4,124 bases of DNA from assembly GCF_003334785.1 (NCBI RefSeq), contig NZ_QOWV01000049.1; one strand, 5' to 3'. Positions 1-4,124 of this stretch are shown piece after piece; position 1 is the stretch's first letter; every line of letters begins with the position of its first letter. The stretch comes from Escherichia coli. Its GTDB lineage: Bacteria > Pseudomonadota > Gammaproteobacteria > Enterobacterales > Enterobacteriaceae. The notes beneath the pieces were generated by a model that saw nothing but the letters and a program-made list of their open reading frames with translations, had not been told where the DNA came from and searched no databases. The position numbers and the translations under genes are program-made.

Positions 1-61
1 AGAAAATATCCGGCGGGTTCCGGAGCGCCAGTCTGTAGGTTTATCCATCAATAGAACTCCG

Positions 62-100
62 TCTAATTTAGAAGGAGCTCTAATTTAGTCTGCAAGGAGC
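62..100. repeat. Short interleaved direct repeats: TCTAATTTAG (62-71, 79-88) and AAGGAGC (72-78, 94-100)
   Basis: Read directly from the sequence: gTCTAATTTAG-AAGGAGC-TCTAATTTAG-tctgc-AAGGAGC-agg. The two TAATTTAG copies place TAA/TAG stops in all three + frames (64, 69, 81, 86). AAGGAG is a perfect Shine-Dalgarno core, but no start codon follows at a usable distance. Confidence 0.6.
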
Positions 101-475
101 AGGTGTTACAGACGGCATTGGCTTTACGCTTACAATGGCTTTAAAGAAACCTTCAAAGTTCGTCCGCAGGCAACCGCCGGTGTATCCTGGCACAATGACC
201 TGTTTACCACTGCTCTTGACATTGATCTGACTCCTGCCAGTGGCTTCACTTCTGACAGCAAACGTCAGTTTGCAAGTGTTGGTGCTGAATTTAACGCATG
301 GAAATGGGCGCAATTGCGTGCCGGTTATCGTCAGAACATGGCATCAAACTCCGGAAGCGCCTTCACCGCTGGCGTTGGTATCTCTCCATTTGACGTCGTA
401 CATATCGATGTTTCCGGCCTGGTAGGAACTGACCACGATTACGGTGCAATGGCACAACTTCAGTTCACTTTCTGA
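89..475 (+). pseudogene. 3' fragment of an outer-membrane beta-barrel protein gene, with no start codon or signal peptide. Possibly the TraF_2-like putative OMP family, but this is unverified.
   Basis: Frame 2 is open for 128 codons from 89 to TGA 473-475. It has no ATG/GTG/TTG before TTG 314, which explains its absence from the ORF track. The translation ends ...LRAGYRQNMASNSGSAFTAGVGISPFDVVHIDVSGLVGTDHDYGAMAQLQFTF*. That tail has alternating hydrophobic residues and a terminal Phe, which is the classic BAM beta-signal. A strong terminator follows. Upstream of 89 all three frames are closed by stops, and beta-strand-like sequence (GAGVTDGIGFTL) sits in frame 3 at about 95-130, suggesting a frameshift. 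The family name is from memory only. Confidence 0.5.
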
Positions 476-487
476 TTACTGTCCCCG

Positions 488-515
488 CCCCCGGCACTAA
501 ACCCGGGGGTATTTT
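488..515 (+). terminator. Rho-independent terminator downstream of the beta-barrel remnant
   Basis: A 7-bp all-GC stem, CCCCCGG (488-494) paired with CCGGGGG (503-509), has an 8-nt loop and is followed by TATTTT (510-515). It lies 13 nt after the TGA stop. Confidence 0.7.
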
Positions 516-534
516 CATATTCAGTTTAAATAAC

Positions 535-1119
535 ATGATGAAACCACGTTCTTCTTATTCAAAAACAGCATTCATTCTTTTATTTTCTGTTTTCCTAGTA
601 GCGGCAGTGACAAAAGCAAAAAGCTCGCTTCCCGATATCACCCTGGAACAGGCAAAAGAAATTAATGCTGATAACACCGTTATTTTCCTTTTCCGCCATG
701 GAGAACGTTGCGACCGTTCAGATATGCCCTGCTATTCGGATAAGAGCGGAATCACTATTACCGGTACAGAGAAAGCACAGCAGGAAGGTATTAAGTTCGC
801 AACAATCTTCAGTGAATATGATATTTACTCCAGCAATGCAGTAAGAACCATACAAACTGCAAAATTCTTCTCCGGTAAAGAACCCGTCGTTATGGACAGT
901 TTATCAGACTGCAATAATGATCTTTATAAGACGCTTGAATCAATCGCAAGAGAATCTCATAAAAGGAACATAGTAATAATGACACATAATCATTGTTTAT
1001 CATTTCTGGCCAGAGATAGGCTCGGCAAGAAATTCAAACCGGCGTACCTTGATGCCCTGATCATGCATTACGATGGCACCCGGCTCATACTTGACGGAAA
1101 ATACAACAAAGAGGCATAG
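535..1119 (+). CDS. ais: Secreted histidine-phosphatase-superfamily protein, a paralog of Ais/PmrG (lipopolysaccharide core heptose(II)-phosphate phosphatase)
   Basis: The 194-aa ORF has an N-terminal signal-like segment (MMKPRSSYSKTAFILLFSVFLVAAVTKA). It carries the catalytic RHG motif in FLFRHGERCDRS. Long blocks match my recollection of E. coli Ais: DKSGITITGT, YSSNAVRTIQ, NIVIMTHNHCL, FKPAYLDALIMH, LDG. I estimate about 45-50% identity by eye, so this is a divergent paralog rather than the chromosomal ais allele. The SD is poor and ATG 538 is an alternative start. Confidence 0.85.
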   Translation: MMKPRSSYSKTAFILLFSVFLVAAVTKAKSSLPDITLEQAKEINADNTVIFLFRHGERCDRSDMPCYSDKSGITITGTEKAQQEGIKFATIFSEYDIYSSNAVRTIQTAKFFSGKEPVVMDSLSDCNNDLYKTLESIARESHKRNIVIMTHNHCLSFLARDRLGKKFKPAYLDALIMHYDGTRLILDGKYNKEA

Positions 1120-1513
1120 AGGATATTTGAATTTACATAAATTCTGATATACTCAGTAAGATACAAGAGTGTACGGGCACATGTGCCTGTCTGAATTGCA
1201 GGTTATCCGGACGAGGGCCGGGAACTGTTTCAGGGACAAGCGCCGGTACGTTTGATTCATAAATCGTCGAGTCATCCATCATGGATCGATTCGGCGCGGA
1301 GCGTTAAAGATTACGCTCATATTCGTTTTATGTCTGACGACACATCAACCAGCCAGTATCAGGAATAATCACCTTCAGTAAACTATGAGGCTATTTACCT
1401 GGCCACACTGGCATTTATTTCCGGTAACGCAAGTATAGCCGGAAACAAACATCATCCTGTCTGTACCGGAGCACCGGTATATCCCATTCTGATTTAACTG
1501 CTCAGGAATTATT

Positions 1514-1669
1514 ATGAACCGTATTATACCTGCGGGGTGTCTTGCCGCCCTTTTTCTGGCTGGCTGCAACTCCCCTTCTCAGAATACTCCTGTTCCGCGT
1601 AACTACGGTGCTGCCTCTGATGTGGCGGTTAACGCTTGTCGCGTGGTATCAGACCTTTGCCACTGCTAA
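1514..1669 (+). CDS. Short lipoprotein-leader ORF (51 aa), probably the 5' fragment of a lipoprotein gene
   Basis: ATG 1514 is preceded by AGGA (1504-1507) at 6-nt spacing. The translation is MNRIIPAGCLAALFLAGCNSPSQNTPVPRNYGAASDVAVNACRVVSDLCHC*. It has a positively charged n-region, a hydrophobic core and lipobox L-A-G-C (Cys18). It falls below the ORF-track length cut-off and overlaps the 5' end of the 409-codon ORF in another frame. Confidence 0.45.
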   Translation: MNRIIPAGCLAALFLAGCNSPSQNTPVPRNYGAASDVAVNACRVVSDLCHC

Positions 1670-2771
1670 CCAGCGTCTGGCAGAGCTGGCTGACAGAGCT
1701 CCAGCTGTAACTTCAATGTCATCACTTGGGGAAGTTGGCGATACTGATTTATTTAGTGCTGTTATGGGGGCATACAAGACTCAATTGCAGAATTCAACTT
1801 ATACCCCACCTTTAGGTACTATAACTTCAGCAGACGAACAACTACTTTCAAAAACAAGCACGCCACAAGATGCTTTAATCAAGCCCACAGAGAAGTTTGG
1901 GCAATGGCTTACGAACAATATTGCCACCGAGTGGACTGATTCGGGTACAAGTAGCAATCAAGTTAATCCACTGATAAAAATGAAAAATATTGGTGATAAA
2001 ACTATGGTCGCTGCAGAGGGTATTTGGATTACTTATACATCTGCTAGAGTTATTACTTCAGGAACTGGGAGTTCTATATTTGGTAAATTCATAGATTTGA
2101 CGACAAGTGCTATTTCAACACTAAATGCCTTACTTGAGGCCTTAGCGCCCCCCGTATACTTTCTGTTACTACTGCTGTTTTGTGCAGGATTCTCTTTATC
2201 TATTTATTTACCATTTATTCCGTTTATTTTCTGGATGACTGGGATTGGTAACTGGGTCATTAGTGTATTAATCGGATGTACAGCTGGACCTCTGTGGGGG
2301 GCAACTCATCTAGGCACATCACAGGACAGAGGGAGTCGTGCTGCCTACGGTTATATATATTTAATAGACAGCATGATAAGACCACCTATCATGGTTTTCG
2401 GATTCTTTTTTGCCTCTGTAGCCATTATAGCAATAGGTACTATATTAAACTTTTTATTCGGTGCTGCACTGACCAATGTACAAATAAGTTCATTTACAGG
2501 TATATTTAGCCTCGCAGGTTTCTTACTTCTTTATGCTAGAAGTTGCACAACAATTGTAGCCGCAGCATTTGCCTTACAAGCATACCTCCCAGACCATGTA
2601 ATTAATTTCCTAGGAGGACGTGATGGTGTAAACACGCTTGGGAATATGGCTGGTTCAATAAAAGAGATTTTTGCTGGCAGCAATAGAAACATAAGACACG
2701 CACCTAATATAAGAGAGGAGCAAATTAAAAGGATGAATAACGACAACAATAAGGATGGAATAAAGGGATAA
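1542..2771 (+). CDS. traY: DotA/TraY-family (IncI / type IVB conjugation) integral membrane protein, N-terminally truncated. Only the C-terminal roughly half of a full-length protein is present, and the 5' about 150 nt are probably not native coding sequence.
   Basis: The 409-codon open frame begins at a TTG with no SD. The first ATG (1620) also lacks an SD. From about residue 45 onward the sequence looks protein-like, with a Ser/Thr-rich soluble region. At least 4-5 hydrophobic spans follow: VYFLLLLLFCAGFSLSIYLPFIPFIFW, NWVISVLIGCTAGPLWGA, PPIMVFGFFFASVAIIAIGTILNFLFGAAL and FTGIFSLAGFLLLYARSCTTIVAAAFAL. The ORF ends in a charged tail. The architecture and the PLWGATHL...RGS..AYGY..L......RPPIMVFG region resemble my memory of the DotA/TraY family (TIGR04346). 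The position just upstream of an ExcA-like gene fits IncI synteny. Full-length TraY proteins are much longer, about 700+ aa. Confidence 0.55.
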   Translation: MPPFFWLAATPLLRILLFRVTTVLPLMWRLTLVAWYQTFATANQRLAELADRAPAVTSMSSLGEVGDTDLFSAVMGAYKTQLQNSTYTPPLGTITSADEQLLSKTSTPQDALIKPTEKFGQWLTNNIATEWTDSGTSSNQVNPLIKMKNIGDKTMVAAEGIWITYTSARVITSGTGSSIFGKFIDLTTSAISTLNALLEALAPPVYFLLLLLFCAGFSLSIYLPFIPFIFWMTGIGNWVISVLIGCTAGPLWGATHLGTSQDRGSRAAYGYIYLIDSMIRPPIMVFGFFFASVAIIAIGTILNFLFGAALTNVQISSFTGIFSLAGFLLLYARSCTTIVAAAFALQAYLPDHVINFLGGRDGVNTLGNMAGSIKEIFAGSNRNIRHAPNIREEQIKRMNNDNNKDGIKG

Positions 2772-2787
2772 TAACTTAATATATGAC

Positions 2788-2816
2788 TTGCCATATACAC
2801 TTGGAGAGATTAAAAT
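2788..2816 (+). promoter_or_regulatory. Sigma70-type promoter candidate for the 204-aa ORF
   Basis: TTGCCA (2788-2793), then exactly 17 nt, then TAAAAT (2811-2816). Each hexamer matches the consensus at 5 of 6 positions. The candidate lies in the 75-nt gap after the traY-like stop, about 20 nt upstream of GGAGG (2833-2837) and ATG 2847. Confidence 0.5.
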
Positions 2817-2846
2817 ATCAAAAAGTGTTTATGGAGGTCATATATA

Positions 2847-3461
2847 ATGATTGGAGCATATGCAAACCGTGGCGGCACCCATTCTAAAAAAGAAACATGC
2901 GTGATCGCATTCGCGCTTTTCTACATTATTTTCGCCGTCCCATTACTAATCATTTGGAATACACCTACCAGTTGGGGACTAGCAGTAATCCCAACTGGAT
3001 TCCTACTATACTCCGGATATAAAAATGGAAGAAAGAAAAGAGCAATCGTAAATAATATCCTAGAACAGATAAAGACTGAATATCATGATGCATTCGATCC
3101 AGACCCATCTTACGAACACAAATCAATATCATCATTATATTTCGGAATTGATATCAAAAAAGGTACTGCGTTATATATTCGGCTTTACCCCAATAAAACA
3201 TTAGATGTCATTGGCATTGATATTGATAATTTTACACGGACAGTAGTAAGAGAAAACTGTATGGAAATACACACAAAGTATGTCAATATGCCAATGTTAG
3301 AATTGCCTATTGGTGTTAACTCTGCTCGTTCTATTGCAAACACATTGCACGCAATGGCAAGTCGAGGATATGATTACCCTGTCGACTTTCCTCGCCTGAT
3401 TCAGGAAAAGCGTAAGGAGTGGGAGCAGATTGCAGGTATGCCTGTAGCTGAAGTATTTTAA
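2847..3461 (+). CDS. Two-TM inner-membrane protein with a cytoplasmic C-terminal domain. It is a candidate ExcA-like entry-exclusion protein, assigned by position only.
   Basis: The 204-aa ORF has a strong SD (GGAGG, 9 nt before the ATG), its own promoter candidate and its own terminator. Two hydrophobic helices are present, CVIAFALFYIIFAVPLLIIW and WGLAVIPTGFLLYSGY. Basic residues flank them (HSKKE before, KNGRKKR after), so both termini are predicted to be cytoplasmic. A soluble domain of about 140 aa follows. In IncI1 plasmids the gene immediately 3' of traY is excA. I cannot confirm sequence similarity to ExcA. Confidence 0.8.
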   Translation: MIGAYANRGGTHSKKETCVIAFALFYIIFAVPLLIIWNTPTSWGLAVIPTGFLLYSGYKNGRKKRAIVNNILEQIKTEYHDAFDPDPSYEHKSISSLYFGIDIKKGTALYIRLYPNKTLDVIGIDIDNFTRTVVRENCMEIHTKYVNMPMLELPIGVNSARSIANTLHAMASRGYDYPVDFPRLIQEKRKEWEQIAGMPVAEVF

Positions 3462-3481
3462 GATAAGCAGCCTCCATAACT

Positions 3482-3510
3482 GCCGGTTCAGATGAGCCGG
3501 CTTTTGTTTG
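3482..3510 (+). terminator. Rho-independent terminator after the 204-aa ORF
   Basis: Stem GCCGGUU (3482-3488) pairs with AGCCGGC (3495-3501). It is 7 bp including one G-U pair, with a 6-nt loop, and is followed by TTTTGTTTG (3502-3510). It begins 21 nt after the TAA stop. Confidence 0.75.
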
Positions 3511-3558
3511 CAACAACACATAGCTTATGCCGTATTAAATAAACCCAAGGACCTATTT

Positions 3559-3753
3559 ATGGCAAAAACAAAACAGGAATGGTTATATCAGTTACGTCGC
3601 TGTTCCAGCTTAAAGACACTTGAGAAAATTATTGCTAAAAACCAGGGCACTTTGGCCTCAGATAAAATAGAAGCATTCAACTCTGCAGTTGATCATCGCC
3701 TTGCGGAACTGACAATGAACAAATTGTACGACAAAGTACCAGCTTCTGTCTAG
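3559..3753 (+). CDS. hha: Hha/YmoA-family haemolysin-expression-modulating protein (H-NS co-regulator), with the C-terminus shortened by TAG at the conserved Trp position
   Basis: The translation [64 protein letters not shown] matches Hha/YmoA (...RLRRC.TIDTLERVIEKNKYELSD.E...[22 protein letters not shown]..VW....) across its full length. An AAGGA SD (3546-3550) lies 8 nt before ATG 3559. The track's TTG 3508 start lies inside the upstream terminator and is rejected. Confidence 0.9.
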   Translation: [64 protein letters not shown]

Positions 3754-3772
3754 AAGTACGTAAAATAACGCC

Positions 3773-3805
3773 AACAAAAAGAGCAGGAAATCCCACACCT
3801 GCTCT
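3773..3805 (-). terminator. Rho-independent terminator oriented for minus-strand transcription
   Basis: An 8-bp stem pairs AGAGCAGG (3780-3787) with CCTGCTCT (3798-3805) around a 10-nt loop. The U-run lies on the minus strand only: the complement of CAAAA (3775-3779) plus flanking bases reads TTTTGTTGG. On the + strand the hairpin is followed by CATTCC, which is not U-rich. Confidence 0.5.
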
Positions 3806-3976
3806 CATTCCTGAATAAACATATCCAATATATTCCAATGCGAAGAAATAATCTCCGTAGAAACACCCATGAGAAAAATATCATATGGGAGAAAATCGCA
3901 ATTATCACAGCCAGTGCATTCATTATTTTCGCTGTGCTCTGGCATTAATTATTTTCAACATAAAAAGGAAAAAATA

Positions 3977-4047
3977 ATGAATCTGGTAGACGCCTTTGTC
4001 AAAAAAGTAATATCCGGGCCATATAAAGAATATGGAAAATGGTGGAT
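3977..4047 (+). pseudogene. 5' stub of a small hypothetical gene interrupted by the IS insertion
   Basis: ATG 3977 is preceded by AAGGA (3965-3969) and encodes MNLVDAFVKKVISGPYKEYGKWWI. The reading frame then runs straight into the IS terminal inverted repeat at 4048. The remaining residues of the track ORF (…EPPRVSWRVFYL*) are IS sequence. The part of the track ORF upstream of 3977 has no SD and looks non-coding. Confidence 0.35.
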
Positions 4048-4124
4048 TGAACCGCCCCGGGTTTCCTGGAGAGTGTTTTATCTGTGAACTCAGGCTGCCA
4101 GATCATCGTTTCCGATGGAAGCAT
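4048..4124 (-). mobile_element. IS3-family insertion sequence, IS629/IS1203/IS3411-like. The right (IRR) end is present and the element continues beyond the window.
   Basis: Positions 4048-4124, TGAACCGCCCCGGGTTTCCTGGAGAGTGTTTTATCTGTGAACTCAGGCTGCCAGATCATCGTTTCCGATGGAAGCAT, are the reverse complement of the IS629 right end as I remember it (...TATGCTTCCATCGGAAACGATGATCTGGCAGCCTGAGTTCACAGATAAAACACTCTCCAGGAAACCCGGGGCGGTTCA). The terminal TGAACCGCCCCGGG is the characteristic IS3-group inverted repeat, with a 5'-TG terminus. Confidence 0.85.
4090..4124 (-). CDS. IS3-family transposase OrfB, extreme C-terminus (partial, continues off the window)
   Basis: The minus strand reads (t)at gct tcc atc gga aac gat gat ctg gca gcc tga, giving ...YASIGNDDLAA*. 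The stop is the complement of 4090-4092. This matches the remembered C-terminal end of the IS629 OrfB. Confidence 0.75.
   Translation of the reverse strand, partial: ASIGNDDLAA

Follow-up and report, generated by a model that had tools for sequence, protein, structure and literature searches.

Plasmids of the IncI family carry excA, the product of which acts in the recipient cell and targets TraY of the donor (PMC11493245, PMC8923210). As cited from Sakuma et al. 2013 in later papers, the segment of TraY that is recognized is central in R64 and C-terminal in R621a (PMC12365149), the exclusion system of R621a differs from that of R64 and ColIb-P9 (PMC8004404), exclusion by R64 reaches about 700-fold (PMC5330492), and R621a ExcA and its target segment in TraY were dissected experimentally (PMC12365149, PMC8004404). 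For IncI1 plasmids, six variants of ExcA and nine of TraY are on record, and the R621a-type pair is carried by some plasmids with an IncI1 replicon (PMC8004404). ExcA of IncL/M plasmids, a distant homologue, is a genetically demonstrated exclusion factor with an exclusion index of ~490 (PMC12365149, PMC4416936); in IncL, deletion of excA brings that index down to 2, and ectopic ExcA restores exclusion in the mutant (PMC12365149). The present study concerns a cassette at positions 2788-3510 of a 4,124-nucleotide (nt) stretch of Escherichia coli DNA (assembly GCF_003334785.1, contig NZ_QOWV01000049.1), hereafter called the window, which encodes a protein of 204 amino acids (aa).

Small exclusion proteins are also known outside the IncI complex. 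TraS of F-like plasmids and Eex of the SXT/R391 elements are inner-membrane proteins whose genes lie beside that of their target, and they act in the recipient, where they recognize a variable segment of an inner-membrane protein of the donor's type IV secretion system (PMC11493245). They are functional analogues of ExcA; no sequence relation between them and ExcA was found here, and their target is the VirB6-like TraG, not the DotA-like TraY.

We conclude, with a probability of about 0.9, that the cassette is excA of the IncI plasmid family, in the form of the R621a (IncI-gamma) exclusion-specificity allele. The gene is orphaned in a remnant of an IncI plasmid that is bounded by insertion sequences (ISs) and has no transfer genes, and its most likely function, as judged from the sequence, is the known role of ExcA, that is, barring entry from donors with R621a-type TraY.

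Results

The cassette encodes an R621a-type ExcA

The cassette consists of the following elements.

2788-2816, + strand: putative excA promoter, TTGCCA-N17-TAAAAT (consensus scan, 10/12 matches; conserved between allele types)
2833-2837, + strand: Shine-Dalgarno (SD) sequence GGAGG, 9 nt before the ATG (invariant in four reference alleles)
2847-3461, + strand: excA, IncI entry/surface exclusion protein of the R621a (IncI-gamma) exclusion type, ATG start, 204 aa (NF033891, identity to R621a, PF27689)
3482-3510, + strand: intrinsic terminator after excA, with an 8-bp stem at 3482-3501, six of its pairs being G-C, and then TTTTGTTTG

The NCBIfam model NF033891 ("plasmid IncI1-type surface exclusion protein ExcA") scored the 204-aa protein at 234 bits (cut-off 100, E = 1.2e-69). 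The protein is identical to ExcA of R621a (WP_000578648.1) at 202/204 residues, with A82 for V and S95 for P in the window, and to the common IncI1 allele WP_000578649.1 at 203/204, the only difference being at residue 82; identity to the 220-aa ExcA of R64 and ColIb-P9 is 54-55%. At the nucleotide level, window 1627-3533 is 98.8% identical to R621a versus ~73-78% (partial) to R64. Hundreds of IncI1 plasmids from Escherichia, Salmonella, Shigella and Klebsiella match window 1627-4050 at 99.4-99.5% identity, and in them the matching segment is annotated as traY, excA, hha and a small hypothetical open reading frame (ORF).

The position of the gene agrees with this identity. The traY stop codon (2771) is followed on the same strand by the excA ATG (2847), a layout shared with R64, R621a and ColIb-P9, and the upstream ORF matches TIGR04346; a sequence-only reading of the window, which had placed the gene 3' of a TraY/DotA-like ORF in the excA position, was correct in this respect. 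The retained part of TraY is also of the R621a type, which is consistent with the R621a (IncI-gamma) exclusion-specificity group and not with that of R64 and ColIb-P9. Public assemblies contain the exact protein (A82/S95) in 223 index blocks; among the matches listed, a full-length, 722-aa traY lies directly 5' of it, within a complete tra region, in 8/8 places.

Among homologues in a collection of 5.8 billion proteins, 35/35 are ExcA/PF27689. Precomputed annotation places the identical protein in PF27689 (Exclusion-determining_protein), a family that was seen only in such annotations; a search of ExcA against a local copy of Pfam-A gave no match. A search of PDB sequences with the ExcA profile returned a chance match only (E = 0.018), that is, no sequence-related solved structure. 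The PADLOC defence models matched none of ExcA, the phosphatase and Hha, and Rfam gave nothing over the window at gathering thresholds. Profile score, near-identity to a characterized member and synteny all place the protein in the ExcA family and, within it, in the R621a specificity group. Because of that near-identity and the profile match, the gene is not novel: it is an already known excA and not a new exclusion determinant.

Comparison with other ExcA loci

R621a and the plasmids with WP_000578649.1 (pESBL of E. coli O104:H4, pZ0117EC0062-1) have an ExcA of the same length (204 aa), encoded 75 nt 3' of traY and followed by the same terminator. In the IncI1 plasmids with WP_000578649.1 the downstream gene is hha, as in the window, whereas R621a has another gene in its place. 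Unlike in all of these plasmids, excA of the window is unaccompanied by a transfer system; its A82 is a minor variant that also occurs in complete plasmids.

ExcA of R64, ColIb-P9 and R144 (220 aa, WP_000644796.1 / WP_000644794.1) belongs to the same family and is encoded at the same place after traY. Its C-terminal ~40 residues are nearly invariant relative to the window protein, and the promoter and SD islands are conserved; the N-terminal membrane part is longer and different, and the segment at ~134-165 differs as well. These plasmids form another exclusion group, with another segment of TraY recognized (PMC8004404, PMC12365149). An internal Met in the R64-type allele yields a 147-aa "ExcB", for which the window allele has no counterpart. 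The IncL/M proteins (pOXA-48, pCTX-M3) share the NCBIfam name, and their genes adjoin traY of a type IVB (MPF_I) system, with ~25-28% identity to the window protein over part of its length.

Some non-self-transmissible mosaic plasmids, such as pST1023 (IncR, PMC9412624) and p2-Ec-BERN-042 (IncI-gamma/K1), likewise kept excA after most of tra was lost; their replicons differ from the host replicon of the window. The latter plasmid shares with the window the left breakpoint in traH, and differs in having an R64-type excA and a right breakpoint at traY nt ~418.

Expression signals

The sequence-only reading had described a 204-aa ORF with a near-consensus sigma70 promoter, a GGAGG SD sequence and a clean terminator. 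The ORF and the SD sequence are as described, and so is the terminator: the RNA folds at -18.7 kcal/mol (z = -3.28), and 0/200 shuffled sequences fold as well. The promoter-like site is present at 2788-2816 as well. Sites that match at the level of the 10/12 site number 9 in the window versus 10.8 +/- 3.7 in shuffled sequences; because the count is no higher than in shuffles, the match alone proves nothing. The 5' halves of the R64 and ColIb-P9 excA genes are too diverged for BLAST alignment, and the traY-excA intergenic regions were aligned instead (window and R621a versus R64 and ColIb-P9). In this alignment the spacer bases are scrambled, but four features are conserved: the -35 TTGC, the spacing of 17 nt, ATTAAAATA at the -10, and the GGAGG. 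Such conserved islands amid a scrambled region support a real promoter and ribosome binding site. Relative to R621a, the signals on both sides of the gene are identical except for one spacer base.

The two-product sub-type known from R64 and R144 (ExcA plus a ~147-aa "ExcB") is not represented by the window allele. Codons 2-138 contain no in-frame ATG, the one internal start preceded by an SD sequence is at codon 198, and the Met of the R64-type "GIWMYS" is absent from the window allele, which reads "GFLLYS". The lack of an internal start is not a defect of this copy, since R621a has the same sequence there.

Predicted topology

Residues 18-37 form a strong hydrophobic helix (Kyte-Doolittle hydropathy 2.9 over 19 aa). 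The second segment, residues 44-58, is short and moderately hydrophobic, with a mean of about 1.2 as summed from the sequence. Two Lys/Arg clusters flank these segments on the presumed cytoplasmic side, one N-terminal to them (3+/1-) and one immediately past residue 58 (6+/2- in 22 aa). The two-helix, N-in topology proposed earlier agrees with the first helix and the charge pattern, the second helix being a short, moderately hydrophobic candidate; hydropathy and charge weakly favour an N-in/C-in hairpin followed by a cytoplasmic C-terminal domain. An AlphaFold2 (AF2) model from a 17-sequence ExcA alignment is unreliable (mean predicted local distance difference test score, pLDDT, 48.5; predicted template-modelling score 0.28); the low-confidence order of its secondary structure is two long N-terminal helices, five strands and C-terminal helices. 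For TraS/TraG and Eex/TraG, cytoplasmic regions of both partners have been implicated (PMC11493245). If the C-terminal domain of ExcA is cytoplasmic, recognition of donor TraY would, by analogy, resemble that in these two pairs.

The remnant around excA

The remaining features of the window are listed below.

1-132: end of an IS66-family element (ISEc47-like) that truncates traF (IncI homology begins at 133)
133-475, + strand: 3' end of traF, the 5' part lost to the IS (homology to pZ0117EC0062-1, where traF lies at 10113-11315)
535-1119, + strand: histidine-phosphatase family gene (PmrG-like), intact, 194 aa (His_Phos_1, E = 1.4e-8; NF011945, 295 bits)
1514-1669, + strand: traH remnant with 38-39 native codons (118 nt, lipoprotein signal), continuing out of frame into traY DNA (translation comparison)
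1630-1631: deletion junction of traH nt 118 and traY nt ~1025-1027, 19.7 kb gone, 2-bp "TA" microhomology
1632-2771, + strand: 3' part of traY, R621a type, codons 342-722, without native start (TIGR04346, TraY identity)
3559-3753, + strand: hha (Hha/YmoA family) with premature stop W65* (TGG>TAG, 3751-3753), 64 instead of 69 aa (Pfam HHA, E = 9e-25)
3977-4047, + strand: 5' portion of a small hypothetical ORF conserved in IncI plasmids, 58 aa in its intact form and here interrupted by an IS (comparison with the WP_001054904.1 type)
4048-4124: end of an IS3-family element (IS1203/IS629-like; IncI homology ends at 4050)

Comparison by BLAST with a complete IncI1 plasmid, pZ0117EC0062-1, placed window 133-1631 at 10973-12471 (99.4% identity) and window 1627-4050 at 32195-34618. 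The 19.7 kb missing in between take with them the rest of traH, traI-traX and the first 341 codons of traY, so that the complete traH-traY gene set of the IncI (MPF_I / type IVB) transfer region is not present; traF is truncated by an IS as well. Translation of the traH remnant is TraH-like over the first ~39 residues, with one substitution, and then diverges up to the stop at 1667-1669. ORF 1542-2771 matches the DotA/TraY model TIGR04346 at 281.6 bits, over profile positions 322-656 only, and the retained part of TraY is identical at 379/381 residues to WP_000698360.1, which is also the annotated TraY of R621a. This part has no native start, because the traH ATG at 1514 reads out of frame and stops at 1669.

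ExcA is therefore orphaned in an IS-bounded IncI remnant without transfer genes. The orphan state suggested by the sequence-only reading is borne out structurally by the loss of traI-traX and the 5' 1024 nt of traY and by the IS ends on both sides. Its account of decayed surroundings holds for traF, traH, traY, hha and the small downstream ORF, and fails for the histidine-phosphatase gene at 535-1119, which is intact; this gene and excA are the only intact ones in the 3.9-kb remnant.

The outer end of IS66-family elements that are multi-copy in E. coli (up to 22 places per genome) matches window 1-137 at 100% identity; an annotated example of these elements has an ISEc47-family transposase with TnpB. 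At the other end, the small ORF shares its first 24 residues with WP_001054904.1-type ORFs and then runs into IS sequence; the sequence past 4050 matches plasmids annotated with "IS3 family transposase". NF011945, matched by the phosphatase, denotes a homologue of the lipopolysaccharide core heptose(II)-phosphate phosphatase, and the gene sits between traF and traH in R64, R621a and ColIb-P9. The stop in hha, called against the 69-aa copy of pZ0117EC0062-1, costs the protein its final five residues; in pUMNF18_IncI1 an "internal stop" is annotated for this same defect. In a transposon-sequencing study of pESBL, hha/ymoA at this position was counted among the ORFs essential for plasmid maintenance, having received few insertions.

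Distribution and host replicon

The traH::traY fusion ORF was found on 12 assembled contigs, most of them 3-4 kb long and 100% identical to the window. Short identical contigs are to be expected, because the fragment is bounded by repeats. A metagenome scan added one further identical copy of the remnant and one single-nucleotide variant of native traH. Coverage of the window stays below 80% for every record among 5,426 complete E. coli genomes and in PLSDB, the exact traH::traY junction is absent among the matches listed in those two collections, and exact-junction scans of GTDB representative genomes, made for two junctions, gave nothing for either.

One scaffold (L018, 1-9336) joins the remnant to a complete-looking, plasmid-type type VI secretion system (T6SS) cluster; in this scaffold the histidine-phosphatase gene is cut by an IS. 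A chromosomal location, which the T6SS neighbour had raised, was rejected because the cluster is plasmid-borne in all of the best E. coli matches, being carried on plasmids of 80-190 kb. One of them, pWP7-S17-ESBL-04_2 (NZ_AP022179.1), has the T6SS cluster, an IncFII replicon, eatA, CS-type fimbriae and many IS66/IS1203 copies, the IS1203 copies being annotated as such. Its IncI1 pieces comprise nikAB, trbC', traE and traF', the last cut by an IS66-family element, and the excA segment is absent. By analogy, the host replicon of the remnant is most likely an IS-rich mosaic plasmid with a decayed IncI1 backbone, of the kind of the virulence plasmids of enterotoxigenic E. coli.

In PLSDB this allele occurs in 236 of about 2,250 ExcA-encoding plasmids, the O104:H4 pESBL type included. 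Among these finished plasmids 233/236 are predicted to be conjugative and 3/236 are not, which makes the orphan state a rare one. The plasmid p2-Ec-BERN-042 (NZ_CP042936.2, 45.7 kb, blaCMY-42) lacks everything between traH nt 119 and traY nt ~417; despite this loss of ~19 kb of tra, the plasmid is typed as "conjugative, MPF_I" by MOB-suite/PLSDB. Plasmids with deletions of this kind may be assigned the wrong mobility, and for that reason the count of orphan excA copies (3/236) is probably an underestimate.

Discussion

In the mechanism described in the literature, the plasmid-carrying cell makes ExcA and places it in its inner membrane. On the approach of a donor whose type IVB apparatus holds the cognate TraY, a DotA homologue, ExcA recognizes a variable segment of TraY, which for the R621a pair is the C-terminal region, and DNA entry is blocked; donors with R64/ColIb-type TraY form another exclusion group and are still admitted. 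The remnant probably still makes ExcA, because working plasmids have the same ORF and signals apart from minor differences. As we infer, the remnant cassette is transcribed from the promoter it carries and would make its host take up fewer IncI plasmids that belong to the R621a exclusion group. The "standing barrier" against IncI-like plasmids that the sequence-only reading had envisaged is plausible, and there are precedents such as pST1023 (PMC9412624). Of modest practical use is the prediction that a strain with the remnant should receive IncI plasmids of the R621a group poorly and stay permissive for R64/ColIb-type IncI1 plasmids. Such a bias could steer which resistance plasmids these lineages acquire, and it fits current attempts to use cloned exclusion genes as barriers to antimicrobial-resistance plasmids (bioRxiv 10.64898/2026.08.26.747417). 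Beyond correct annotation the importance of the locus is small, given that the gene, its family, the allele and the target TraY have all been described.

Several points weigh against a working barrier. The topology is drawn only from hydropathy and charge, with the AF2 model at a pLDDT of 48.5, and the promoter match on its own is not above chance. The region is decaying, as seen from the nonsense mutation in the neighbouring hha. The remnant copies give no signal of purifying selection, because they are identical, and retention is not obligatory, since the related pWP7-S17-ESBL-04_2 lost the segment. It is accordingly possible, if doubtful, that the gene is excA by descent only, not usefully expressed or without selective benefit, and persists because the deletion and the IS insertions are recent. 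The identity of the remnant copies points to such a recent origin, the truncation of traF, traH, traY and the small ORF adds to the stop in the adjacent hha, the related mosaic plasmid does without the segment, and orphan copies do not accumulate, only 3/236 finished plasmids with the allele being non-conjugative. However, the ORF, promoter, SD sequence and terminator are intact, with one spacer base different from R621a, and IncI-type excA cassettes work when supplied ectopically (PMC12365149 for IncL, and Sakuma 2013 as cited). Moreover, a second, independent tra deletion, found in ~40 E. coli plasmids typed as IncI-gamma/K1, also spares excA, in that case the R64-type allele.

Other explanations fare worse. 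It is very unlikely that the retained unit is a pair of excA with the C-terminal part of traY, in which the TraY fragment (ORF 1542-2771, TTG start) modulates or titrates ExcA. The 409-aa ORF is open across the junction and is called by gene callers, it holds the C-terminal 381 residues of TraY, and the C-terminal region is the target of R621a ExcA (PMC12365149, citing Sakuma 2013); but the native traH ATG (1514) is out of frame with traY and its frame stops at 1669, the sole in-frame start is a TTG inside traH, nothing suggests that a fragment without the N-terminal 341 residues inserts correctly in the membrane, and exclusion works between cells, not inside one. As for the new exclusion specificity or unrelated two-transmembrane protein that the sequence-only reading had considered, sequence identity excludes it. 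The empty search of the local Pfam-A copy and the two residues at which the protein departs from R621a ExcA (A82 for V, S95 for P) could be taken in its favour, but the protein shares 202/204 residues with ExcA of R621a, a plasmid named in that very reading, it scores 234 bits against NF033891 and carries PF27689, and the A82/S95 protein lies beside a 722-aa traY in 8/8 places among the matches listed, as a normal circulating allele does. A changed specificity through V82A was rejected, because the exact protein circulates with an intact traY.

That the intact, self-expressed cassette has been kept by selection in transfer-dead IncI remnants and not by chance, as a stand-alone immunity of the host or of the mosaic virulence plasmid against one IncI exclusion group, is in our estimate unlikely. 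There are two hints in this direction, namely the two tra deletions with a common breakpoint in traH, both of which spare excA, and the existence of at least one plasmid that stacks four excA alleles, some with 3' fragments of traY. Both would point to a gathering of excA cassettes as modular barriers against plasmids.

Related deletions and excA arrays

The left breakpoint (after ...GATGTGGCGGTTA, traH nt 118) is identical to the base in the window (1630-1631) and in p2-Ec-BERN-042 (7499-7500). The right ends differ, lying at traY nt ~1025-1027 in the window (R621a type) and at nt ~418 of an R64-type traY in the ~40 IncI-gamma/K1-typed E. coli plasmids, in both cases after "TA". A metagenome scan for other junctions at traH nt 118 found none. 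The common breakpoint could be a hot spot, or the deletions could be nested ones from a fixed end.

Records with several copies of ExcA are rare, as there are 2,268 places in 2,252 PLSDB records. The stacked alleles are found on an IncI contig, AAZPJY010000010.1 of GCA_017565145.1 (10001-15156), which has four excA alleles in a row 3' of traY; they encode 204 aa (the same as in the window), 216 aa, 220 aa and 220 aa. The contig also has a 206-aa ORF in which a C-terminal fragment of TraY is fused to the small hypothetical ORF. The row of alleles is possibly a multi-specificity exclusion array that arose from recombination between IncI plasmids. ExcA alleles are mosaic: in one of 216 aa (P0007), the N-terminal membrane part is of the P0025 type and the variable segment, VVRENCMEIHTKYVNMPMLEL.IGVNSARS, is of the window type, which suggests recombination within excA, by which specificity modules could be reshuffled.

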